Shown one piece after another: positions 18,106-49,116 of a stretch of 64,000 bases of DNA. Source of the stretch: Bacteroidia bacterium (GTDB taxonomy: Bacteria; Bacteroidota; Bacteroidia; Bacteroidales; VadinHA17); assembly GCA_026391215.1 (NCBI GenBank), contig JAPLDX010000055.1, forward strand, positions 478-64,477. Direction: 5' to 3'. Below the pieces are notes generated by a model. That model saw only the letters and a program-made list of their open reading frames with translations. It was not told the DNA's origin and searched no databases. The position numbers and the translations under genes are program-made. Numbering within the stretch: the stretch's first letter is position 1; the number at the start of each line of letters is the position of its first letter.

Positions 18106-18301
18106 TTTACATATGATCTATAAAAGTACAAATTATTTGCTTAATAAAAAATGACAGACTTGATGTCGCACTGCGACAGGATGGGAACAATTTTTTAAAT
18201 GCATTATATATTATAAATTACGACAAAGTTTTTGTACTTTGGTTTAGATCTTCTAATGAATTAGAAATATGTTACATCATATCTGGTCATCCGGATTAAT
18301 T

Positions 18302-21100
18302 ATGTTAAGAAAGATCCGGAACTGTCTCATAATCTTATTATTACTCCCAGCTTCTGCCTTTTCTCAAAAGATTACCTCTCTGACGCTGGCGGATGCTCCC
18401 GGGCTTCAGGCCGGGAAAATATCTCTCACGGACAGCATAATACTTAATATAAACGGAAACAAACCATTATTTAGTTTCCTTCTTGATGGAAAATATTTCA
18501 ATTCTGCAGTGGCAAATGCTGTAATACAGAATAACTCCCATATACAGTATTTTGGAAGGGATCTGAAGGTAACCACTGTGATCGGGAACCAGGTATCAGG
18601 AAGCTGGACATCTGAGATCATTTTTGAAAACAATGGTCCTGATACTGTTTCCATCAGCAATGTTGTTCCTTTCGGGGAAGATTCATCTTCGTTTTATATT
18701 ACCGGATACGGTCCGGCCGATCTTGCCCGTGCATGTCTGTTCCGCCCTGGTTACAGGCCAGTCAGGGTAATACTGCCTGATAATGCCTGGGAAATGGGAT
18801 ATACATCATTCCCTGCTGATCAGGGTTATTCGGTATGCGCAATCGCAAGGAGGCTGAAAACGGAAGGAGGTCAGAGAAGAAGATATGAGACACTTCTGCC
18901 CCCTGAATCTAAAGTATCATATATAATTCATGCCAACGCTTTCAGGGGAGAATGGCAGGAAGGCTTACGGCTGATGTTCAGGGACAGATATCTATATGAT
19001 CTCGAAGAATTTGACAATTCACTTTATGAACGCAAAGACCTTGCCTGGATAAAGGAGAGTTACCTGATGATCTTGCAAATGGCGTGGGACAGAGAGTTTT
19101 ATGACAGGATGACCGGAAAGTATACCTTCCATGAAGTGATCAGGAAAGGTACTAATCTGTTTGGGTACTTTGATGTCTTTTGCATATGGCCAACCTGGCC
19201 GCGGCTCGGATTGGATCAGAGAAACCAGTGGGACCTCTATCGTGACCTGCCCGGGGGAACTGCCCAGCTCAGGAGTTTTGCACAAATGTCGCGTCTTTCC
19301 GGTACGAAATTTTTTATTTCCTATAATCCATGGGATAACAGTACGAAAACAGAGGATCATTATAAAGGTATGGCAAGGATCATTGCTGAGACTGAGGCAG
19401 ACGGAGTCGTGCTTGATACCAGGGGCAGCTCGAGCTATGAACTGCAGGCTGCTGCCGACAGTGTGAGAAAAGGAGTGATAATGTATTCTGAAGGAATGGC
19501 CATAACCAAAGATATGCCCGGAATAATTTCAGGACGTGTTCATAATGCCATCTATCTTAGCCCTGAGCTGAATCTAAATAAGCTTATTAAACCAGATTTT
19601 TCGATTTTCCGGGTTTGTGATGTGGGCGAGGATATTATTCACCGTGAAGTAGCAATAGCATTCTTTAATGGCTATGGTACCGAGCTTAATATGTACAGGC
19701 CAGGCGGTAGGGATGAAAATTTTGATGCGGACCTTGATTTTCTTGCCAGGACAACTTTTACCCTGCGCCAGAATAATGATGCCTTCCTCGATAATAACTG
19801 GACTCCGCTGATCGGGACAACCTTAGACAATGTTTACGTAAACCAATGGAACTCAGGAGAAAAAACGATTTATACTGTACTTAATATGCGACCCGAAGGA
19901 GTAGCGGAAAACCTTTTTAAGATTAACAGCCATGCCGGGAAGCATTACGTTTCATTGTGGAATCACGAGAATCTTATTCCTGAAACAGAAAAAGGAAAAA
20001 CCTTAATTTCATCAAGGGCTGACGGATGGCAGACGATCTGGTCAGGATCGAGAAAGGAGGGATCAGTTGATTGTATTGCTGAATTGCCGGATATTTTGAA
20101 ATCGGAACTGAGGGGTGATTCTGTTAAAATACATCATCCCGGAAAAGGCAGGGTAATTATCTGGAAGGGAGATCCATCATATAAAACCGTTTATAAAGAA
20201 TTCAATATTCTTCAGGATACTGTAATCAGGATCAGGGACCTTTTTGGTTATTATGAAGGCAAGATCGTTGTACAGCTTATTGAGGACAAAAGGCTGAAGG
20301 ATGAGAATGTTCTCAGGCTTGAAGGTGGCAAACCATGGCTCATCAGCAGGGTAAACCGCACCACAACCCGGGCAATGAATGTCCCTTCAGATATGGCGCT
20401 GGTGCCCGGAACCTCATTTTCCTTTAATGTCACCACCGGTGAGGATTTCATGCCTTATCCTGATGTAAGCGGCAGGATGGTCAGGATTGATAGTTTTCTT
20501 ATTGATAAATATCCAGTCACAAATGCCCAGTACTATGAGTTTCTTATCAATACAGGCTATTTTCCAAAAGATACAATAAATTATTTAAAACACTGGGAAT
20601 CAGGAATATATAAACAAGGTCAGGATAAATATCCGGTAGTTTATGTCAGCTATGAAGATATTGCAGCTTATTTAAAATGGGCTGATAAAAGATTACCCAC
20701 AGAGGCTGAGTGGCAGCTTGCAGCCCAGGGAACTGATAAGCGTTTGTGGCCATGGGGCAATGAATTCCATGGAACAAATTGCAACAATAGTTTTGACAGG
20801 CCAACCCCGGTTGATGCTTTCTCTAAAGGTATGAGTCCTTATGGCGTTTTGGATATGGTAGGCAACATATGGCAGATTACCAATGATATGTATTTCAATG
20901 GCGCTTATTACTTTTCAGTGATCAGGGGTGGAAGCTATTATCGTCCCGAATCGAGCTGGTGGTATATTCAGGGAGGTCCGCAGCAGCTGGATAAAACTCA
21001 GATAATGCTTATGGTATCTCCGGGGTTCGACAGGAACGCAACGGTTGGATTCAGGGGTGTGAAGGATGTGGATACGAAAAACTTCAGGGGCAGGAGGTAG
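18302..21100 (+). CDS. Secreted large protein with C-terminal formylglycine-generating-enzyme (FGE/SUMF1) family domain
   Basis: Signal peptide MLRKIRNCLIILLLLPASAFSQ. C-terminal motifs are YPVTNAQYYEF, YPVVYVSYEDIAAYLKWADKRLPTEAEW, WPWGN and RGGSY. The roughly 690-aa N-terminal region has no motif I recognise. Confidence 0.75.
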   Translation: MLRKIRNCLIILLLLPASAFSQKITSLTLADAPGLQAGKISLTDSIILNINGNKPLFSFLLDGKYFNSAVANAVIQNNSHIQYFGRDLKVTTVIGNQVSGSWTSEIIFENNGPDTVSISNVVPFGEDSSSFYITGYGPADLARACLFRPGYRPVRVILPDNAWEMGYTSFPADQGYSVCAIARRLKTEGGQRRRYETLLPPESKVSYIIHANAFRGEWQEGLRLMFRDRYLYDLEEFDNSLYERKDLAWIKESYLMILQMAWDREFYDRMTGKYTFHEVIRKGTNLFGYFDVFCIWPTWPRLGLDQRNQWDLYRDLPGGTAQLRSFAQMSRLSGTKFFISYNPWDNSTKTEDHYKGMARIIAETEADGVVLDTRGSSSYELQAAADSVRKGVIMYSEGMAITKDMPGIISGRVHNAIYLSPELNLNKLIKPDFSIFRVCDVGEDIIHREVAIAFFNGYGTELNMYRPGGRDENFDADLDFLARTTFTLRQNNDAFLDNNWTPLIGTTLDNVYVNQWNSGEKTIYTVLNMRPEGVAENLFKINSHAGKHYVSLWNHENLIPETEKGKTLISSRADGWQTIWSGSRKEGSVDCIAELPDILKSELRGDSVKIHHPGKGRVIIWKGDPSYKTVYKEFNILQDTVIRIRDLFGYYEGKIVVQLIEDKRLKDENVLRLEGGKPWLISRVNRTTTRAMNVPSDMALVPGTSFSFNVTTGEDFMPYPDVSGRMVRIDSFLIDKYPVTNAQYYEFLINTGYFPKDTINYLKHWESGIYKQGQDKYPVVYVSYEDIAAYLKWADKRLPTEAEWQLAAQGTDKRLWPWGNEFHGTNCNNSFDRPTPVDAFSKGMSPYGVLDMVGNIWQITNDMYFNGAYYFSVIRGGSYYRPESSWWYIQGGPQQLDKTQIMLMVSPGFDRNATVGFRGVKDVDTKNFRGRR

Positions 21101-33558: not shown

Positions 33559-34068
33559 ATGTTAAAAAAGAAGGTAGAAGATATCTGCAACAGGCAGGTT
33601 GAAAGAGAAGGATATTCCTCAAACCTTTATCTTGCAATGGCAGCATGGGCTGAAAATGAGGGTTTTAGCGGGGTAGCAGATTGGCTTTATGCCCAGGCAG
33701 AGGAGGAAAGGATCCATTTTCTTAAGTTTATAAGGTATATCAACGAAAGAGGAGGAAAGGTTTTAATACCTGCATTTAAGAAGCCGCCGGCAGAATTTAA
33801 AGGTGTCGGGGAAATGTTCAGAGAGGTGCTGAAACATGAAGAATTTATTACAGCCAGCATTAACGAGATAGTAGCTCTGACATTATCAGAAAAGGATTTT
33901 AACACTCATAATTTCCTGCTGTGGTTCGTAATGGAACAGGTTGAAGAAGAGAAAAATGCCAGAGCAATCCTTGACAAGCTCCGTCTGGTCGGCAAAAACA
34001 ATATGTACCAGTTCGATAGGGATATCATGTCATTAAGAATCCCATCTCAACCCCCTCCAGTAGCTTAA
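33559..34068 (+). CDS. ftnA: Ferritin
   Basis: VEREGYSSNLYLAMAAW and EEERIHFLKF ferroxidase-site style motifs. The start was trimmed to the ATG at 33559. Confidence 0.85.
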   Translation: MLKKKVEDICNRQVEREGYSSNLYLAMAAWAENEGFSGVADWLYAQAEEERIHFLKFIRYINERGGKVLIPAFKKPPAEFKGVGEMFREVLKHEEFITASINEIVALTLSEKDFNTHNFLLWFVMEQVEEEKNARAILDKLRLVGKNNMYQFDRDIMSLRIPSQPPPVA

Positions 34069-36521
34069 TGAAGAAATCTATCTTATTATCCATCCTGGTT
34101 TTTATAGTTTCAGCTCCTCAGATCAACTCCCAGAAGCTGATAAAAAATTCGATGGTTACAGGCATATGCTATGCCGGAAATAAGGTAAAGAAGATTTATA
34201 TACCACCGCCTGAGAAATTTCTGCAAAAGGGCGGCGTACTAAAAGAAAAAGCCACAGTTAAAGTTTACTATTCAGGAACTCCGGCAAATATTGTTACAGC
34301 AGTGGATTTTGCTGCAGCCGTTCTTGAAACGATCCTCCCTTCGGATGCATATATGACTGTAGCGGTTTCAACAGGAAGCCTCACTTCAGATGTACTGGCT
34401 AATTCAAGTACCAGCGGTCTGGCTGGAGGATGGGCAATTGATGCCCTTGATCCCAATGCTTTTTACCCTGTTGCCCTGGCTGAAAAGATTTATGGTGAGA
34501 GCCTTAATGACGATCTGTCGGGCGACATCGTTCTTACAATTAACACAGATGTGAACTGGTACACCGGTACTGATGGAAATACTCCGATATCTCAATACGA
34601 TCTTGTCACTGTAGTACTTCATGAGCTTCTACATGGACTGGGCTTGTTTGACTCAATGTCTGGAGATGCTTCGACAGGTTCCTGGGGCTTTTCAAACATC
34701 CCCGTCATTTACGATTCTTTCATTGAAAACCAGGCCGGGAACAAACTAATAGATACATTGATTTTTATAAATCCATCTGTCGAACTGAAAAATGAACTTA
34801 CTGGCGGGCATCTCTATTTGAACGGCCCGCTTCTGAAGGATTTAACCTCCGGACAGCGAGCCAGAATATATGCTCCTTCAACCTATGATCCAGGATCAAG
34901 CATTTCTCATCTTGATGAAGATACCACACCCGATTCAAGCGCACTGATGACTCCTTTTATTGACAAAGGGGAAGCAATTCATAATCCGGGGAAGCTGATA
35001 ATGTCAATACTGGGCGACCTGGGATGGGTCAACACACGTTTTATCCATGAAAAACCGGCAGACACCGAAGAGCACCTGTCCCAGATAGCAATTACCGCAG
35101 CCATTGTGTCAGATACCACATTTGAAAGAAACAAGGTAGGACTCGTCTGGTCATTCGACGGATTCAGTACGTATGATACTGTATATATGAGCTCTCCTCA
35201 GTTAAATGATACTTTCACGGTAACGATCCCCATACCTTACTTTGATGCCAATCTGGAATATTATATGTTTGTCAGAGATCATTTTTTACGTATATACAGA
35301 TCTCCTTCATATGTAGACGAATTCCGCTACAGTGTTCGTATTGGAATGGATACAGTGAAACCCGTAATGGTACATACTCCTGTTGAGTATTATTTCGAGA
35401 AAGTTGATACTATAACATTCGAAGCTCAGGTTGCGGATAATATAGGAATAGATACGGTTTATGCTGAATATTTAGTAAATGAAGGCGCATCAGGATATAT
35501 TGGTCTTAAGGCAGGAGATAACTATTCATATACTGCTTCACTGAAAGCAGGATCCCTTTCATTGCAGGGAGGAGATTCTATCCGTTACCGCATAATAGCC
35601 CGTGATAAAGCCTCTGTCCCGAATACGAAAACAGTACCTGAAAATGGTTACTTCACAATAAGAATTGAAGATATAAGCTCAGTTGTTTCAGGCTATTCAA
35701 CTGACTTCACTGATGCATCAGGAGATTTTTTCAATATCGGATTTGAAATCGTAAAGCCCAATAATTTCTTAAATTACGGATTGCACTCAGAACATCCCTA
35801 TGTGAGTCCGGAGACAAATGACGGGAAACTGAATTTCTCAGCGATGCTCAGGCATCCGGTAATATTTGATGCTAACGGCATGATCATAAGCTTCATGGAG
35901 CTTGTCCTTGTGGAACCGGGAGAAGACGGTTCGGTTTATGGCTCAGAGGATTTTTACGATTATGTTATTATAGAGGGATCCAAAAACTACGGGAAGACAT
36001 GGTTCCCGCTGACCGATGGATATGACTCCAGATATATTAAATCGTGGGAAACTGCATATAACAGCTCTATTACCGGAAATAACTCAACCTACGTGGGTAA
36101 AGAGTCAATGATGTTGAAGCACATCATATTTCCAAAGACTTCTTCCAGCATTTCAGGCGGAGACACAATGATGGTGAGATTCAGATTATTCTCAGATCCC
36201 TTTGCCAATGGATGGGGCTGGGCAATTGAGGATTTTCACATAGGTCCGCTTATTGACAGGATTGAAAAAACCAGTTATGAAACTGCTGTTGTCTATCCAA
36301 ATCCAGGTAAAGGACTGTTTAAGATTAAAGACCTGGAAATCTCCGGAAGACAGGTGAGATATGAAGTATACAGCTCAACAGGTGTCAGGATAAAGACAGA
36401 TATTACAAATGGCAGCGAAGAGCTGGCTATTGATATTTCCGGTCAGCCATCAGGATTGTACTTCATTGTCGTTCGTTCCGCGACAGGCAGCAAGATCCAT
36501 AAATATACCCTCATAAAATAA
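34068..36521 (+). CDS. Secreted zinc metalloprotease-like protein with T9SS C-terminal sorting domain
   Basis: Signal peptide. HELLHGLGLFD (HExxHxxGxxD) with a possible Met-turn, SALMTPF. C-terminal VVYPNPGKGLF...GLYFIVVRS...KYTLIK is typical of the T9SS type A sorting domain. The ATG overlaps the ferritin stop (TAATG). Confidence 0.75.
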   Translation: MKKSILLSILVFIVSAPQINSQKLIKNSMVTGICYAGNKVKKIYIPPPEKFLQKGGVLKEKATVKVYYSGTPANIVTAVDFAAAVLETILPSDAYMTVAVSTGSLTSDVLANSSTSGLAGGWAIDALDPNAFYPVALAEKIYGESLNDDLSGDIVLTINTDVNWYTGTDGNTPISQYDLVTVVLHELLHGLGLFDSMSGDASTGSWGFSNIPVIYDSFIENQAGNKLIDTLIFINPSVELKNELTGGHLYLNGPLLKDLTSGQRARIYAPSTYDPGSSISHLDEDTTPDSSALMTPFIDKGEAIHNPGKLIMSILGDLGWVNTRFIHEKPADTEEHLSQIAITAAIVSDTTFERNKVGLVWSFDGFSTYDTVYMSSPQLNDTFTVTIPIPYFDANLEYYMFVRDHFLRIYRSPSYVDEFRYSVRIGMDTVKPVMVHTPVEYYFEKVDTITFEAQVADNIGIDTVYAEYLVNEGASGYIGLKAGDNYSYTASLKAGSLSLQGGDSIRYRIIARDKASVPNTKTVPENGYFTIRIEDISSVVSGYSTDFTDASGDFFNIGFEIVKPNNFLNYGLHSEHPYVSPETNDGKLNFSAMLRHPVIFDANGMIISFMELVLVEPGEDGSVYGSEDFYDYVIIEGSKNYGKTWFPLTDGYDSRYIKSWETAYNSSITGNNSTYVGKESMMLKHIIFPKTSSSISGGDTMMVRFRLFSDPFANGWGWAIEDFHIGPLIDRIEKTSYETAVVYPNPGKGLFKIKDLEISGRQVRYEVYSSTGVRIKTDITNGSEELAIDISGQPSGLYFIVVRSATGSKIHKYTLIK

Positions 36522-40826: not shown

Positions 40827-41402
40827 TTAATTTTTATCAGCTTGTACTGATGATCCTGAATTTATCATCTCCAGATAATGAACAACGTTAGAAAGATATT
40901 CTTCAATACGTACAGGCTTTTTCAATTCAATCATCAGATCGAAAGTTGAAGAGTCTGCTTCCTTGTCAAACAATCCAACCTTGAAGCTGGCTTTGGATAA
41001 GGAGGATATATAACATAACGGAAATGATTTTTCAAAATTAACATCGATCAGTACGTCGAACATTGTATTGATGAACCTCTCTGTTTCAGATGATACCGGA
41101 ACATAAAATAAATTGATCTCCTGTTTCCTGAAACAGGTAAGATACCTCAGCGCAGTATATTGATTTGGGAGCTCTTTCCCCGGGTAATACCCAAGAATGT
41201 TTACGTTAATACCTCTTTCATTCATTTGTTGATGAAACCTTGACAGATTAATGAAATCCTCAGGTTTTGAGGCATCCCATATAATACCTATGCTTTTTAT
41301 ACGGCTTATATTTGAGTAAAAAACTTTTCTCCTGACCTTTCCAAGCTTCTTTGAAAGGATTGAGTTTCCTGTTTTCAGCCTGATCTCACTGAATAATTCC
41401 AT
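40827..41402 (-). CDS. Hypothetical 191-aa protein (no recognisable motif)
   Basis: Uninterrupted ORF packed between ligA and dapA (gaps of 46 and 2 nt) on the same strand. Confidence 0.6.
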   Translation of the reverse strand: MELFSEIRLKTGNSILSKKLGKVRRKVFYSNISRIKSIGIIWDASKPEDFINLSRFHQQMNERGINVNILGYYPGKELPNQYTALRYLTCFRKQEINLFYVPVSSETERFINTMFDVLIDVNFEKSFPLCYISSLSKASFKVGLFDKEADSSTFDLMIELKKPVRIEEYLSNVVHYLEMINSGSSVQADKN

Positions 41403-41448: not shown

Positions 41449-43464
<2,016 letters not shown>

Positions 43465-43479
43465 TCATCACAGCTTTAA

Positions 43480-44616
43480 TCAACCCCATACACCATCAAT
43501 AACATTCTTGCAATTCTTGCATTTTCCTCCCTCCATATTGTTTACGGTAATCCTGTAACCCTGTCTTCCAATAACTGTCGTACCGCAGGAGGGACACTTT
43601 GTATCAGCCATTTCATTTCCCGGCACATTGCCGATATAGACATATTTTAATCCTTCAGCGATGGCAATCTTTAATGCATCCCTCAGCAGCTCGACCGGAG
43701 TAGGAGGCAGCTGTTCAAGTTTGTGAGTAGGATAGAACCTGCTGAAATGCAGTGGAGTCTCCTTGAATCCGTTCTCACTTAGCCATTTGCACATTCTGCC
43801 TATCTCTTCAGTATTATCGCTCCATGTGGGTACAATCAGGTTTGTGATTTCAAGCCATGTCCCCATATCCTTGTATATTTTGAGCGCATCAAGTACAGGT
43901 TGAAGCTTGCCTCCGGTGAGCTTTAGATAGGTGCTGTCATTAAAAGATTTAAGGTCAACATTTGCTGCATCAAGTACACTGCAAATCTTTCTTAACGGTT
44001 CAGGATTGATATATCCATTTGTTTTAAAAATGTTTTTTACACCCGAATTTTTTGCAATAGAGGCAGTTTCATAGGCATATTCATAAAATGTTGTCGGCTC
44101 AGAGTATGTATATGCAATAGATTTGCAATTATTCCTGATACTCTCCTCTACAACTCTTTCCGGCAACAGGTCGTAATTTCTTGTTTTATCAGGACTGGTT
44201 TGTGAGATTGTCCAGTTCTGGCAGTTAAGACAGGCAAGATTACATCCTGCCGTAGCTATTGAATATGCCCTTGATCCCGGGAAAAAATGATAAAGGGGTT
44301 TCTTTTCAATGGGATCCACATTGGCAGAGCACGGATTGCCATATGCCATGGTATAAAGTTTGGAATTGCGGACTATCCTGTTTCTGCAGTCACTGATCTC
44401 ACCCTCTTTAAGAACACATTCGTTTGGACATATCCTGCATACTATTCCTCTCGGCGTCTCTTCCTGGAACATGGCGACTTTACGATGCAATTCCTGCTCC
44501 CCCGGAATGACGCCATTCATAAAAGCAGAACATGGATATGTAACAATACCTGCCGAGAATGCCAGGCATTTTTTCACAAAGTCGCGTTTACTTTTATTAT
44601 AAGATCTATCTCTCAT
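43480..44616 (-). CDS. amrS: AmmeMemoRadiSam system radical SAM enzyme (AmrS-like) with Tat-like N-terminus
   Basis: Radical SAM motif CNLACLNCQN and C-terminal Cys pairs (CPSCG..CKNC). The N-terminus SKRDFVKKCLAFSAGIVTYPCSAF resembles a twin-arginine-type signal carrying KR. Adjacent to Memo/AMMECR1 genes. Confidence 0.8.
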   Translation of the reverse strand: MRDRSYNKSKRDFVKKCLAFSAGIVTYPCSAFMNGVIPGEQELHRKVAMFQEETPRGIVCRICPNECVLKEGEISDCRNRIVRNSKLYTMAYGNPCSANVDPIEKKPLYHFFPGSRAYSIATAGCNLACLNCQNWTISQTSPDKTRNYDLLPERVVEESIRNNCKSIAYTYSEPTTFYEYAYETASIAKNSGVKNIFKTNGYINPEPLRKICSVLDAANVDLKSFNDSTYLKLTGGKLQPVLDALKIYKDMGTWLEITNLIVPTWSDNTEEIGRMCKWLSENGFKETPLHFSRFYPTHKLEQLPPTPVELLRDALKIAIAEGLKYVYIGNVPGNEMADTKCPSCGTTVIGRQGYRITVNNMEGGKCKNCKNVIDGVWG

Positions 44617-44645
44617 TTTAATGAATGCTCCAGAGAATAAAACTA

Positions 44646-47069
44646 CTATTTGTTCCTGTTTGTTCCAAGAAGAATCCCGGCAAAAATCAGGCCCGATAAT
44701 AAAAATATTGAAGCTTTCAACCCGATTAGTGGAATTGCCACACCTGAAATGAGGATAAATCCGAAAGCTGATCCGGCAAGATCTGCACTATAGATTACGG
44801 CAGATGCTGATCCGTTATTATCTGTGATGGTAAGTTCACGGAAAATATGACCTGTAATAAATGAGGGTAAAAGGGCTGATATTATTATAATAAGTATTGC
44901 CGCAGGAATGCTGTTGACCGACAACAGAAAACTGGCACCCATGGCAACTATGGCATAATATGCGATCAGGAAAAGGGCTTTGACCTTTAATGATAATGCA
45001 TTCAGGAACCTTATGTTCATTCCTGCACCGGCAGCCAGACCAGCCATAAGCGCTGCCAGAATAATACCGGTGAATTGATACATATTGCCTACTGTAAGCT
45101 GAAGCGATAACAGAATGATTATTTCAAAACCTGACAACGCAGAGGCACTGCAATACATTAAAAGGTTTTTTCTTCGCACGGTAAGGACGGGCAATGCGAA
45201 AATTACTATCATAAGAATTATTGACGGGATCTTTTCGTTAAGATTCTTGCTTATGCTGTATGACTGGAAATGAAAGCTTGCTGTCGGGAATACTGAACTG
45301 TTTTTCCTAACCTGTGGATCAAGAAGTGAAATAATCTCAGCTGATTTATTCTCCATCAGGTCGTCAGCAAGGAAATCGGAGCAGACATAGACATTATTTA
45401 TATTTCTTTCCTCTGTAAGTCTGCAAATTGAAGCTGACACTTCAGAGTCTGATGCAATAAAGTAGAGTTTATTTCCGGCAACAGGCTTTACATATTTGAA
45501 TACTCCGGCTAAGCTGTTATAAATGGATGAAAAAAAGTTAATGGATTCTTTGTTGGGGTAATTATCCCATATCCCGGGCGAGCACATGAATATACCTCCT
45601 GAGGTAAGTCTTTTCTTAGCATCAACAAAGAACTCCTTGGTGTAATACCTGTTCAGTGAGAGGGTAGAAGGTGGAGGCAGAAGAAGCAGGATCGCATCGA
45701 ATTTATCTCCCCTGCTTTTCATGTACCTGAATGCATCCTTATTTTCAATCTTCAGCTCTGCACTGCCGGGATCAGCTTGTTCTGTTACTGATTTTATCAG
45801 TTCAGGATCCCTCTCAATATAAACAACTTCTTTTACAGGGTACTTAATTATCTCAGGCAGATGCGATTTCAGGGATCCTGAAATAAGCAGAACTTTTTCA
45901 GGATTCTTCTTCTGAAGCATAGCATAGTGTATGTTTTCTTCTCTTTCAGCTACATCACCAGAATAGACAAGCAACCTGTGATTAAAATATATGCTTTTCT
46001 CGCCTTTGTATTCCCCGGTTGTAATATTCCCGTATGGAGTATCCTGTGTATCAGTGATTTTGACTCCTGGCATGAGTAGTTGCCTGATATGGACATCCGG
46101 ATCGGATAAAATAATTATAGTCGCAAGAACTGCCGTAACTGTCTTTATTATGATTTTTATTTTCCTGTTATGGATATAACCTGTCAGAAGAGCATAAGCC
46201 ACTGCCAACAGAATAATTGTAAGGAGAAGCTGATATGTATTGAACCAGCCTGCAGTAAGAACCGACAGAATAATACCAGCCGCAATTCCGCCGATGGTCT
46301 CAATGGAAAAGGATTTGCCCGGAATGAAATCATTACCTGATTTTGCAGCGGCAATAAGCTTGACAAAGCTGAAACCTGATACCAGGCAGAAGGGGACCAA
46401 AACCAGGAAGGTGAAAATCATGCTTAAAAGGAATGAGGGAGTCACTCCGGTTTGCAGGAAAAGCCTGGAGAAAAGGATAAGCAATGCAATGGAAATCAAA
46501 GGACTTACTGAAAACATCAGGTTGATCCTGCGGATGTCATTCAGCGCTGATTTTCCTGCAGCTGCAGCACCGATTCCTGATGCAATAAGCCATGAGCCAA
46601 GAAATATTCCTGCAGTTAGTTCATAGCCGCCCGAAATATTCATCACCTCCCTGATCAGCAGGATCTGTACTGACATGCTGGTAAATCCGATGAGAAACAG
46701 ATTGATGCTGATATCTGAAGGGCTCATTTTGGTATAGGTATGCATCCCTGAAGGCTCTTCAGTTCCGGAAAATATTTTGCTGAAATACGATAAGTGCCAG
46801 ATAAAGTGAAATATGCCGGTTATTGCCATACCGGCTCCTGTTTCAACATGCCATTTTAATATAGATTTTATTCCCGGTATATCCCATTTGAAATTTATTT
46901 GCAGCGCCATAAACAGACCGGCCAGCGCTGTAAAAATAAAAGTTATGGCAAGGACGGAATTCCAGAGTCTCCTGTGCCAGGCAAGAGAATATACACCTGT
47001 CCGGTAAAAAATGAAGCTTATTAAATAGAGAACAGAGACAGTAATTCCTGTTCCGATGACATGATACAT
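44646..47069 (-). CDS. Polytopic membrane protein with central spermidine-synthase-like (Rossmann) domain
   Basis: 807 aa with many hydrophobic helices at both ends. The central soluble segment KVLLISGSLKSHLPEIIKYPVKEVVYIERDPEL...DAILLLLPPPS...YTKEFF resembles SpeE-type fold motifs, but the Gly-rich loop and acidic residues are degenerate. Confidence 0.7.
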   Translation of the reverse strand: MYHVIGTGITVSVLYLISFIFYRTGVYSLAWHRRLWNSVLAITFIFTALAGLFMALQINFKWDIPGIKSILKWHVETGAGMAITGIFHFIWHLSYFSKIFSGTEEPSGMHTYTKMSPSDISINLFLIGFTSMSVQILLIREVMNISGGYELTAGIFLGSWLIASGIGAAAAGKSALNDIRRINLMFSVSPLISIALLILFSRLFLQTGVTPSFLLSMIFTFLVLVPFCLVSGFSFVKLIAAAKSGNDFIPGKSFSIETIGGIAAGIILSVLTAGWFNTYQLLLTIILLAVAYALLTGYIHNRKIKIIIKTVTAVLATIIILSDPDVHIRQLLMPGVKITDTQDTPYGNITTGEYKGEKSIYFNHRLLVYSGDVAEREENIHYAMLQKKNPEKVLLISGSLKSHLPEIIKYPVKEVVYIERDPELIKSVTEQADPGSAELKIENKDAFRYMKSRGDKFDAILLLLPPPSTLSLNRYYTKEFFVDAKKRLTSGGIFMCSPGIWDNYPNKESINFFSSIYNSLAGVFKYVKPVAGNKLYFIASDSEVSASICRLTEERNINNVYVCSDFLADDLMENKSAEIISLLDPQVRKNSSVFPTASFHFQSYSISKNLNEKIPSIILMIVIFALPVLTVRRKNLLMYCSASALSGFEIIILLSLQLTVGNMYQFTGIILAALMAGLAAGAGMNIRFLNALSLKVKALFLIAYYAIVAMGASFLLSVNSIPAAILIIIISALLPSFITGHIFRELTITDNNGSASAVIYSADLAGSAFGFILISGVAIPLIGLKASIFLLSGLIFAGILLGTNRNK

Positions 47070-47071
47070 AG

Positions 47072-48580
47072 TTACTTCTTGTTTTCTTCAAGTACGATAC
47101 CCTCATAGATGAAGATCTCGGCATTTTTCCAGCCATCCCATCCCAGTCCTGCCTTATCCCTTGAGGTATAGCCAAGGAACTGTTCAACTGTCCAGTTATT
47201 TTCTGTCGCTACCTGTGGCAGCATGGTACCTGCCCGGAAATCCTTCTTTATATAAATCCCATGTTTCCCCAGAACTATCTCGCTGATATTGTCGATTTTT
47301 TTCATGGGACCCAGGACCGTTATCTCCATTTCGATTTTATCAAACTCTTCTTTTGTAAGAGGGTAGAAGCGGGTATCTTCAAAGGCTGATGACAAAGCAG
47401 AAGCCTGGACAACTTCGTAAAGCGGATCAGATGACAGGAATCTTCCTATACAACCCCTGAGATTGCCGTTGATCTTAAGTGTCACAAAAGCTCCCATCTG
47501 TTCTTTCAGAGCTTCGGGTATCTTTTCTTCATCAATGGGATATCTTTTGTTTTCATAAAGCATTGTCCTGATGCTGTTACGAGCTATTGAGAAAAGCTGC
47601 TCTTTTTCCGATATAGAAAATGTAACATCCGCGGATGACGTCTGTTCATTTTTCATATTTAAATTTTTCTCGATCAGGGCAATGGCATTATAACCGACCA
47701 CCCTGTCTTTGTCTCCGTATTGTGTATCACCTGAATTACAATAATCAATCTGTTTGAATTCAAGGTTTTTATCACCTTCAGCCAGATACATCAGTGTAAG
47801 ACCTGAAGTCCATCCGCACATGCTTGTTACCAGACCCGGATAATTCTTTGAAGAATTGTTTTTCATTGCAGTAAGAAAGGCCCGTGGATCACCTGTAACA
47901 ATTCCTTCAGCAGTCTGATTATCAACATAAACAGCATCCTTGTATAACGGGTAGTGTGAAAAATCACTGCTTATCAGGAAGAGATTCTCCGGAGTGAAAT
48001 ATGGTTTGAGAGCTTCGGCAATGAGTTTGATAGTGTTGGTATTATTTGTTCCTATTATTATTGGAACGATCTTCGGTGTTTTTGTATAATAATACTGAAT
48101 CAGCGGAATCTGGACCTCCAGGCTGTGTTCCTGCATGTGTGCAGTGACAGGAAAATCAAAAACCTTGTTTTCACTCTTAAGCTTGCTGGCAATTTCCCTG
48201 TTTACAATCGCTTTTCCCAGCGGGGTTATAAAATCACCGGTATTGTATACTGAGGCGCCATCAAAGGCCATTACATGGCTGGAGCCAATCAGGAAAATAT
48301 TGCTTATTGCGGCATTTTTTGGCGTTATCGACAGGGCCGACGCTGCAATCTTGCCTGAGAAAACATATCCGGCATGAGGGGCTATGATTGCCCTGACTTT
48401 CCATGTGGCTGATGATTTTTTGCATTCAGCGAAAAGACCTGCAATATCACGTGTGAGGGCTTCCTTATCGGCTTCATAAAAACTGCCTGCTGCAACCGGC
48501 TGTCTGTCAGTTGATTTATTCTGGGAATAAATTTCCATAACACTGAAGATTGATAACACGACTATTAATACTCTGCGCAT
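47072..48580 (-). CDS. Fused AmmeMemoRadiSam system protein B (Memo-like) and protein A (AMMECR1-like), with signal peptide
   Basis: Sec-type signal MRRVLIVVLSIFSVMEIYSQ. The Memo motif is IIAPHAGYVFSG. The AMMECR1 motif is GAFVTLKINGNLRGCIGRF. Confidence 0.85.
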   Translation of the reverse strand: MRRVLIVVLSIFSVMEIYSQNKSTDRQPVAAGSFYEADKEALTRDIAGLFAECKKSSATWKVRAIIAPHAGYVFSGKIAASALSITPKNAAISNIFLIGSSHVMAFDGASVYNTGDFITPLGKAIVNREIASKLKSENKVFDFPVTAHMQEHSLEVQIPLIQYYYTKTPKIVPIIIGTNNTNTIKLIAEALKPYFTPENLFLISSDFSHYPLYKDAVYVDNQTAEGIVTGDPRAFLTAMKNNSSKNYPGLVTSMCGWTSGLTLMYLAEGDKNLEFKQIDYCNSGDTQYGDKDRVVGYNAIALIEKNLNMKNEQTSSADVTFSISEKEQLFSIARNSIRTMLYENKRYPIDEEKIPEALKEQMGAFVTLKINGNLRGCIGRFLSSDPLYEVVQASALSSAFEDTRFYPLTKEEFDKIEMEITVLGPMKKIDNISEIVLGKHGIYIKKDFRAGTMLPQVATENNWTVEQFLGYTSRDKAGLGWDGWKNAEIFIYEGIVLEENKK

Positions 48581-48660: not shown

Positions 48661-49116
48661 CTAAATGAGAACCATTGACTCTTTCAATATCTCACCATTT
48701 TCATCCGTACCGTAGATTTTAATGCCAAGGCTTACGGTAGGTGTTCCTACCATATCAATTATGGGACTTAAAGCATCCTTGAGGTCCTCTACTTCCATAC
48801 TGTCGAATTCCTCTATATTGAAATAAAGGTGAATAATGAGAGTGGCTTCCGGTTCTTTTATGGCGCAAAGGACCTTTACTATTTTTGCCAGCCATATTGA
48901 TGAGGCTGTATTGAAATATTCAAGATTAAGCCTCAGATTTGTGGTATGCCTCGGATCTTTTGCATACTGATTAACCCATTTCAGTACTTGATCGTATAGA
49001 TCAGCAGCATTTTCGGGAATTGACCTTCCTGAAAGTATCAGTTCTCCTGTAAGATGATTAAGATCAATCTGGGGCGTTTTAACAGTAGACTCAATGTAAA
49101 TATTTTTCAGTTCCAC
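48661..49116 (-). CDS. DUF1987 / SiaC-family protein
   Basis: 151 aa. TPQIDLNHLTGELILSGRSIPENAADLY and LEYFNTASSIWLAKIV match the DUF1987 pattern as I remember it. Confidence 0.65.
   Translation of the reverse strand: MELKNIYIESTVKTPQIDLNHLTGELILSGRSIPENAADLYDQVLKWVNQYAKDPRHTTNLRLNLEYFNTASSIWLAKIVKVLCAIKEPEATLIIHLYFNIEEFDSMEVEDLKDALSPIIDMVGTPTVSLGIKIYGTDENGEILKESMVLI

Follow-up and report, generated by a model that had tools for sequence, protein, structure and literature searches.

Within a 64-kb stretch of a Bacteroidia bacterium genome (contig JAPLDX010000055.1; the whole stretch is referred to below as the window), three minus-strand genes make up a locus of the AmmeMemoRadiSam type, in which Memo, AMMECR1 and a radical S-adenosylmethionine (SAM) enzyme are associated. 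The three open reading frames (ORFs) lie at 47072..48580 (gene 1, 502 aa), 44646..47069 (gene 2, 807 aa) and 43480..44616 (gene 3, 378 aa), and are separated by gaps of 2 nt (47070-47071) and 29 nt (44617-44645). An earlier note on this DNA had described the same three genes and the same gaps, all of which were found as described, and every peptide string that it quoted was present in the translations. Searches with the hidden Markov models (HMMs) of the AmrA, AmrB and AmrS families, which that note had proposed, gave matches above the cut-off for all three (TIGR04335, TIGR04336 and TIGR04337). Gene 1 encodes a fusion of Memo (AmrB) and AMMECR1 (AmrA), assigned by Pfam and TIGR models, gene 3 encodes the radical SAM enzyme AmrS (TIGR04337; Radical_SAM, PF04055), and the ORF between them, gene 2, encodes a polytopic membrane protein, here called Mfam, which is a conserved extra component of what we describe below as an exported subtype. 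These data showed that the locus comprises a bona fide AmrB-AmrA fusion, an AmrS and a dedicated polytopic membrane protein, co-oriented and tightly packed.

In the fusion, the Memo domain comes first (PF01875, residues 28-299, 180 bits) and the AMMECR1 domain second (PF01871, residues 331-494, 168 bits). TIGR04336 (AmrB) scored 223 bits against a cut-off of 26, and TIGR04335 (AmrA) 162 bits against a cut-off of 99; both are carried on one polypeptide, encoded 2.4 kb upstream of AmrS in the same orientation. The Memo metal-site residues (APHAGY, GSSH, DFSHY and MCGW) and the AMMECR1 motifs RGCIG and DTRF are retained, and the closest solved structures are those of MM0484/PH0010 (AMMECR1-like) and human MEMO1. 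The A/B fusion, which had been singled out as unusual, is real, but it is not unusual, since Memo/AMMECR1 fusions were already noted in 2007 (PMC2034487).

The first 19 residues of the fusion (48524..48580, minus strand) form a predicted Sec (signal peptidase I) signal peptide, MRRVLIVVLSIFSVMEIYS, followed by QNK, in which a positively charged n-region precedes a strongly hydrophobic h-region, with small residues at -3 and -1 and Gln at +1. Gln at +1 of a signal peptidase I site is a typical habit of Bacteroidota (the “Q-rule”). Orthologues from 37 loci kept a signal at the same place; in other Bacteroidota it ends in SQ, AQ or a lipoprotein-like Cys, and Desulfobacterota have AxA-type sites. 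Cytoplasmic-type Memo orthologues begin right at the Memo domain, with no leader. The n/h/c layout and the retention in orthologues both speak for the Sec-type signal peptide that had been proposed for this N-terminus. A Ser-Gln junction is also found in two large, secreted-looking proteins encoded elsewhere in the window, at 18269-21100 (plus strand, ...AFS-QK) and 34068-36521 (plus strand, ...INS-QK), and the junctions of the window proteins are consistent with the Gln(+1) habit.

AmrS scored 340.5 bits with TIGR04337 (cut-off 220), and since this match begins at residue 56, the protein has about 45 extra N-terminal residues. Alignment A1 revealed invariant cysteines at C60, C63, C77, C125, C129, C132, C341, C366 and C369, with C344 nearly so; these include the radical SAM cluster motif C125-x3-C129-x2-C132 (CNLACLNC; 44221..44244, minus strand). 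An AlphaFold2 model of AmrS was discarded for its low confidence (predicted local distance difference test, pLDDT, 55). Conservation and alignment with RRxFL motifs mark residues 1-32 (44521..44616, minus strand) as a putative twin-arginine translocation (Tat)-type signal region. Its n-region holds the Tat-like motif S9-K-R-D-F-V-K15 (44572-44592), which differs from the consensus S/T-R-R-x-F-L-K in that the first Arg is Lys, and its h-region, CLAFSAGIVTY (about 11 residues), averages about 1.65 on the Kyte-Doolittle scale, where the Sec signal of gene 1 reaches about 3.0. The charge distribution of the leader is that of an N-in/C-out segment.

The 120 closest AmrS homologues (71-98% identity) are nearly all 375-380 aa long, and about 118 of them keep the motif [SG]KRxF[LIV]KK[CS]LAxSAG. 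This conservation of the extension, in both length and sequence, indicates that the annotated start is real, and it disposes of the possibility of a start-codon artefact, in which the true start would be an internal Met. An internal-Met start was seen in two homologue gene calls, P0004 and P0015. A lipoprotein signal on AmrS was likewise rejected, because the Cys after the h-region alternates with Gly and its context is not lipobox-like.

In a joint alignment, K10-R11 of the window AmrS fell in the RR column of canonical RRxFL motifs. Among the 150 nearest AmrS representatives at 50% identity, 90 had no extension, 28 had an N-terminal RRxF[LI] with an h-region and 3 had KR, RK or KK, the rest comprising a few Sec-like or lipoprotein-like leaders and 18 long fusions. 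KR is present in most Bacteroidota loci and RR in four (L012, L013, L014 and L036), and RR occupies the motif position in 34 AmrS genes that adjoin the membrane gene in metagenomes. Natural KR Tat signals occur in Salmonella TtrB and the plant Rieske protein. The description of this N-terminus as a Tat-like n/h region with KR in place of RR was thereby strengthened, being conserved and aligned, column for column, with the RRxFL of other phyla, in keeping with a putative Tat-type signal. In two loci, the membrane gene of the module has tatA and tatC as its immediate neighbours (L039, 11106-12084; L071, 11431-11926). L039 is labelled Aenigmatarchaeota and looks bacterial, which mis-binning may explain.

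The cleavage site of the AmrS leader differs among lineages. No clean AxA site is present in the window clade, where the residues after the h-region (PCSAF-M and PGSAV-M) fit the -3/-1 rule poorly. One possibility is that the leader, inserted by Tat or Sec, stays uncleaved as a signal anchor and keeps the enzyme at the membrane's outer face, beside the membrane protein, and not free in the periplasm; a membrane-bound complex would make sense of a dedicated polytopic partner. The h-region is, however, only about 11 residues long and of low hydrophobicity, AxA-like sites are found in many orthologues, and those in other lineages are clear, so that an anchored AmrS seems to us quite unlikely.

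The membrane protein belongs to a family of about 807 aa that occurs in metagenome-assembled genomes of Bacteroidales. An AlphaFold2 model (pLDDT 80.8; predicted template modelling score, pTM, 0.80) and hydropathy agree on 3 + 7 transmembrane (TM) helices, then a soluble domain that spans roughly residues 323-612, then a further 7 TM helices. The first 7-TM block (residues 113-322; 46104..46733, minus strand) and the second (residues 613-807; 44649..45233, minus strand) are homologous (hhalign probability 98.1%, E 1e-13), and this homology, together with the predicted topology, suggests that the second is an inverted repeat of the first. Inverted repeats are common in transporters. Seven short loops, with 1.7-3.0 Lys/Arg each, alternate with six loops that have 0-0.6, a pattern that holds in the Bacteroidales family and is weaker across phyla. 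The soluble domain is located between TM10 and TM11, on the Lys/Arg-poor side, and the alternation of the loops thus places both the N-terminus and residues 323-612 (45234..46103, minus strand) outside, on the predicted periplasmic side.

The soluble domain has the fold of the spermidine synthase SpeE. Spermine_synth (PF01564; residues 379-498, 49 bits) was the sole Pfam domain of the membrane protein, and the top 50 PDB matches of a Foldseek search with the model were all aminopropyltransferases, with target-normalised TM-scores of 0.57-0.71 and E values down to 2e-10. These matches covered the soluble domain alone; the TM part gave no informative match among the top 50. All SpeE equivalog models scored far below their cut-offs (NF002956, 81 against 472; NF002010, 43 against 260; TIGR00417, 36 against 250 bits). 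In the window protein, SGSLKS replaces the SpeE motif GGGDGG and LLPPPS replaces DxxDP, while E419, D445, D458 and N473-R474, which are invariant across phyla, are kept; members in other phyla mostly retain GGGxGG and [DN]LPDP. Judged by these motifs, the domain is not a bona fide SpeE in this clade, and the family overall seems capable of binding SAM or decarboxylated SAM.

Joint Genome Institute annotation labels members of this family “spermidine synthase”, and it could be argued that gene 2 encodes a membrane-bound polyamine aminopropyltransferase of the usual kind, placed between amr genes by chance, and that the N-terminal “signals” of its neighbours are artefacts of gene calling. Spermine_synth as the only domain match, and the internal-Met starts of P0004 and P0015, would fit such a coincidence. 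The sub-threshold equivalog scores and the loss of the catalytic motifs from the window protein speak against it, as does the conservation of the N-terminal extensions in sequence and not in length alone, and the distribution of the gene (see below) contradicts it further. We regard this reading as having next to no probability, since the present evidence already contradicts it.

The distribution of the membrane gene was surveyed by a scan with an AmrS alignment, limited to one genome per GTDB species, which yielded 80 loci that were annotated with our own ORF calls and HMMs; this sample, like a corresponding one of 80 loci from metagenomes, consists of the best matches to the queries rather than random draws. 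The loci came from Bacteroidota, Ignavibacteriota, Desulfobacterota, Omnitrophota, Elusimicrobia, Fibrobacterota and others. A member of the membrane family adjoins AmrS in 57 of the 81 genome loci, in several phyla. Loci were tallied by AmrS leader if their flanks spanned 3 kb or more, or if the membrane gene was present. In this tally, the membrane gene was adjacent in 49 loci with a Tat-type AmrS and absent in 3; for extension-less AmrS, the counts were 4 and 7. A signal peptide or lipoprotein-like signal was found on the Memo/AMMECR1 partner in 36 of the 39 scorable Tat-type loci. The cytoplasmic-type loci of Paludibacteraceae and relatives (L041-L045 and L048) lack the membrane gene, and neither enzyme bears a signal there. 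The membrane gene was thus shown to co-vary with the N-terminal targeting signals on the other two proteins.

The reverse test, from the membrane protein in metagenomes, gave the same picture: of the 62 loci that could be evaluated, 59 had amr genes next to the membrane gene and 3 had none, where loci without amr genes were counted only if at least 3 kb was available on both sides, and 18 contigs were too short to judge. Almost all of the adjacent metagenomic AmrS genes carry DRRxFLK. Both co-directional and convergent arrangements were seen, and since many loci are convergent, the adjacency survives rearrangement. When neighbouring genes were clustered, just three families, AmrS, Memo/AMMECR1 and the membrane protein, proved to be shared by the phyla sampled and not by close relatives alone; LigA, DUF6913, SiaC, ArgRS, Ffh and SecA are neighbours by local synteny, among close relatives only. 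Both this restriction and the persistence of the module across phyla, in differing gene orders and orientations, are at odds with a coincidental neighbour. Adjacency in both directions indicates a distinct subtype to whose core the membrane protein belongs. The earlier note had spoken of a membrane protein inserted into the operon; the gene is indeed inside the operon, but “inserted” does not describe a conserved core component. The tabulation across genomes that it had proposed bore out synteny of the membrane gene with amr genes across phyla, in step with the signals.

In some loci, a cytoplasmic-type AmrS, with or without Memo, lies directly beside an exported-type module, or two Memo/AMMECR1 sets are present (L022:1937-9122, L068, L099, L086 and L088). 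This side-by-side occurrence suggests that the cytoplasmic and exported subtypes have distinct, non-redundant roles. The sole cultured isolate among the loci with an exported-type module is Mangrovibacterium marinum DSM 28823 (L018; NZ_QAAD01000014.1), which has a KR-type AmrS and an 827-aa membrane protein, and in which the Memo gene runs off the contig start.

At its N-terminus, the window membrane protein carries a 3-TM module (residues 1-100; 46770..47069, minus strand), which we propose, on the basis of conserved His residues and Pfam matches of orthologues, as a putative dihaem b-type cytochrome of DUF4405-like character. His3, His32, His74, His88 and His92 are invariant or nearly so (alignments A2 and A3). 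The module is fused in many Bacteroidota, is a separate ORF of 107-109 aa in L030 and L036, and is absent from the non-Bacteroidota members. Of 21 orthologous modules, nine matched DUF4405 (PF14358; best E 8.8e-6, with none shown to exceed the gathering score of 26.7 bits), three matched Cytochrom_B561, two Ni_hydr_CYTB and two Ferric_reduct. In the predicted topology, His3 and His74 would lie near the outer face and His32 and His88/His92 near the inner one, the pattern of a dihaem transmembrane wire. DUF4405 proteins have been shown to bind haem b, and transmembrane electron transfer was proposed for them (PMC11334425).

Other lineages carry other candidate electron-transfer partners. AmrS is fused elsewhere with DsbD_2, with FMN_bind+Fer4_5 (NapH/NosR-like), or with both, and NapH-like genes lie directly upstream of an extension-less AmrS in three loci (L058, L059 and L080). 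In 10 loci, from Omnitrophota and relatives (L053, L061, L072, L074, L079, L081, L100, L101 and L151, plus L110, in which the AmrS N-terminus is cut off), a separate DsbD_2 gene adjoins AmrS or the membrane gene, or lies between the two. In nine of these 10, the AmrS leader is of Sec type, or of Sec type by heuristic (the heuristic scores being Tat:KR for L061 and Sec/TM for L079 and L081), some with AxA sites; the type of AmrS leader thus appears to go hand in hand with the occurrence of DsbD_2. The 835-aa protein P0244 combines, in one polypeptide, a Sec-like signal (ending FSQ), Memo, AMMECR1 and AmrS, and P0257 has the reverse domain order behind an N-terminal TM anchor. AmrS was also found fused behind long, secreted-looking N-terminal regions, in P0245 (with a CBM_11 carbohydrate-binding domain) and P0246 (Reg_prop/PorZ-like beta-propeller repeats), a further hint of an extracytoplasmic context.

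Taken together, the alignment in the RR column, the signals on the partner and the syntenic membrane gene support the proposal that the system is envelope-targeted and acts at or across the cytoplasmic membrane, as far as can be read from sequence. We consider it probable that the locus represents an extracytoplasmic, membrane-wired subtype of AmmeMemoRadiSam. In such a subtype, the Memo-AMMECR1 fusion would be exported by Sec and cleaved before Gln20. AmrS would fold and acquire its iron-sulfur (Fe-S) clusters in the cytoplasm, followed by Tat export through the KR-variant signal. The membrane protein, with about 17 TM helices, would have its N-terminus outside, which would put the SpeE-fold domain and the two soluble enzymes all on the periplasmic side. 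These first three steps form the core of the claim, and the three that follow are progressively more speculative. The five-His 3-TM module may act as a dihaem b-type cytochrome that passes electrons, probably from menaquinol, across the membrane to an AmrS cluster, a role that adjacent or fused DsbD_2 or NapH-like/FMN-binding proteins would serve in other lineages. A small molecule, either SAM or the substrate, might be delivered or presented to the enzymes by the inverted-repeat 7+7 TM domain together with the nucleotide-binding-fold domain. The substrate, finally, could be an envelope, periplasmic or membrane-embedded molecule and not cytoplasmic RNA.

The main rival to an exported subtype is an arrangement that straddles the membrane, in which only Memo-AMMECR1 would be exported. 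The Tat-like peptide of AmrS would then be vestigial or would serve as a tether, as in NarG, with the enzyme at the cytoplasmic face, and the membrane protein would pass a substrate or a radical-derived product to the periplasm. This would remove the problem of SAM and reductant supply, and it would suit a window clade that has KR and no clean AxA cleavage site. The C-termini of NosR and NapH are cytoplasmic, and an AmrS fused to, or encoded just downstream of, NapH-like proteins can accordingly be cytoplasmic in some variants. The N-in/C-out charges of the AmrS leader are difficult to accommodate in such an arrangement, however, as are the many orthologues in other phyla with a full RRxFLK and AxA-type sites, which are typical of cleaved Tat signals. 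The tatA/tatC pairs in two loci, the co-variation of the AmrS signal with that of its partner, and the predicted periplasmic location of the SpeE-fold domain itself argue in the same direction, and we judge the straddling arrangement to be unlikely.

Several points weigh against an extracytoplasmic AmrS. To our knowledge, no characterised radical SAM enzyme works in the periplasm, and we know of no evidence that SAM and a low-potential reductant are available there. The motif in the window is KR and not RR, no tat genes are present in the 64-kb window, and the signal calls were made with in-house heuristics and alignment. The sidedness of the membrane protein was deduced from the positive-inside rule alone, and the module of the window protein itself had no Pfam match at E<=0.1. 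Loss of the glycine-rich loop and the DP motif in the window clade weakens the idea of SAM binding. The Sec-type signals on some Omnitrophota AmrS, and the triple fusion P0244, are hard to reconcile with Fe-S insertion in the cytoplasm. The best-match nature of both locus samples belongs here as well.

A full mechanism for an extracytoplasmic subtype is offered tentatively, as possible rather than probable. Tat would carry AmrS out with its clusters in place and perhaps with SAM bound; the membrane protein would re-reduce it through the dihaem cytochrome b, and the TM and SAM-fold domains would supply SAM or substrate. Together with Memo-AMMECR1, AmrS would then modify an envelope or membrane molecule, which would make this the first radical SAM system outside the cytoplasm and would offer a first mechanistic way into the chemistry of Memo and AMMECR1.

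The genes that flank the module in the window were considered as parts of the system and rejected, because their synteny is limited to close Bacteroidales relatives (13-14 loci). A gene for a SiaC-family (PF09345, DUF1987) regulatory phosphoprotein lies 80 nt upstream in the same orientation (48661-49116, minus strand), with a GTG start that is a mechanical ORF call, and its synteny extends to just 13 close Bacteroidales loci. Downstream of AmrS, a DUF6913 protein and the NAD-dependent DNA ligase LigA are encoded (40827-41402 and 41449-43458, both minus strand); ligA is 21 nt from AmrS, and both genes are kept among close relatives only. Rfam and tRNA scans of the window returned no matches, and a scan of the window for sigma-70 promoters and terminators did no better than on shuffled sequence, the promoter model being unsuited to Bacteroidota.

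The association of Memo, AMMECR1 and a radical SAM enzyme was described by Balaji & Aravind (2007; PMC2034487), who predicted a role in RNA base modification. The predicted export signals on both enzymes and the dedicated membrane protein argue that cytoplasmic RNA is not the substrate, at least in this subtype. Burroughs et al., in the Journal of Biological Chemistry in 2019 (294:10211; PMC6664185), also reportedly described this association, extended the gene contexts of Memo and linked it to isoprenoid modification. No description of an exported AmmeMemoRadiSam system, or of a Tat-exported radical SAM enzyme, was found in the literature searched; Burroughs et al. 2019 may have noted part of this. 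Conservation of both Memo and AMMECR1 reaches from archaea to humans, in whom the two proteins have links to disease. If AmrS is targeted to Tat, it would challenge the assumed confinement of radical SAM enzymes to the compartment that holds SAM and low-potential reductants, and it would predict a transmembrane route for the supply of SAM and electrons. A membrane-bound complex of this kind would be a tractable object of study, and Mangrovibacterium marinum DSM 28823, as a cultured carrier, is a candidate for experiments.

The closest solved relative of the AmrS core is the pyruvate formate-lyase activating enzyme (PDB 3C8F/3CB8; E 1e-8), with which it shares the CX3CX2C cluster; AmrS adds N- and C-terminal cysteine clusters and an export leader, and lacks a glycyl-radical partner. 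AmrS resembles Tat-exported Fe-S proteins, such as hydrogenase small subunits and DmsB/NrfC-type ferredoxins, in its S-[KR]-R-x-F-[LIV]-K motif, in the weak hydrophobicity of its h-region and in a cofactor whose insertion would have to precede export. Here, however, the cargo would be a radical SAM enzyme, of which we know no characterised example.

The membrane protein shares with the membrane-bound “spermidine synthases” (PRK03612/NF002956; the fused MFS/spermidine synthase NF037959) a multi-TM block followed by a SpeE-fold domain. PRK03612 was its top NCBIfam match (residues 122-496), yet at 81 bits against a cut-off of 472. Unlike these proteins, it has a second homologous 7-TM block after the soluble domain, which is predicted to be periplasmic; the Bacteroidales members add the His-rich 3-TM module, and the window clade is without the glycine loop and the DP motif. 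With the b-type cytochromes of DUF4405, MsrQ and PepSY type (PMC8238504; PMC11334425), this module shares a small TM unit with conserved His on both membrane faces, whereas here it has only three TM helices and five His, and is fused to a transporter-like protein. A likeness also exists to the NapH-like and DsbD extracytosolic electron-transfer modules (PMC8238504), in that the amr module lies beside, or is fused to, NapH-like FMN_bind/Fer4_5 and DsbD_2 in other lineages. No apbE or flavinylated partner was seen in the window, and the main texts of PMC8238504 (Méheust et al. 2021) and PMC11334425 do not mention radical SAM, Memo or AMMECR1.

With AmmeMemoRadiSam as such, the locus shares all three families above their cut-offs, a cluster that runs in one direction, A and B fused as in other bacteria, and the catalytic motifs. 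It differs from the classical form (for example L041-L045, with no signals and no membrane gene) in that both enzymes carry predicted export signals, and in having, as a built-in fourth component, a polytopic membrane protein that combines a cytochrome-like module with a SpeE-fold domain.

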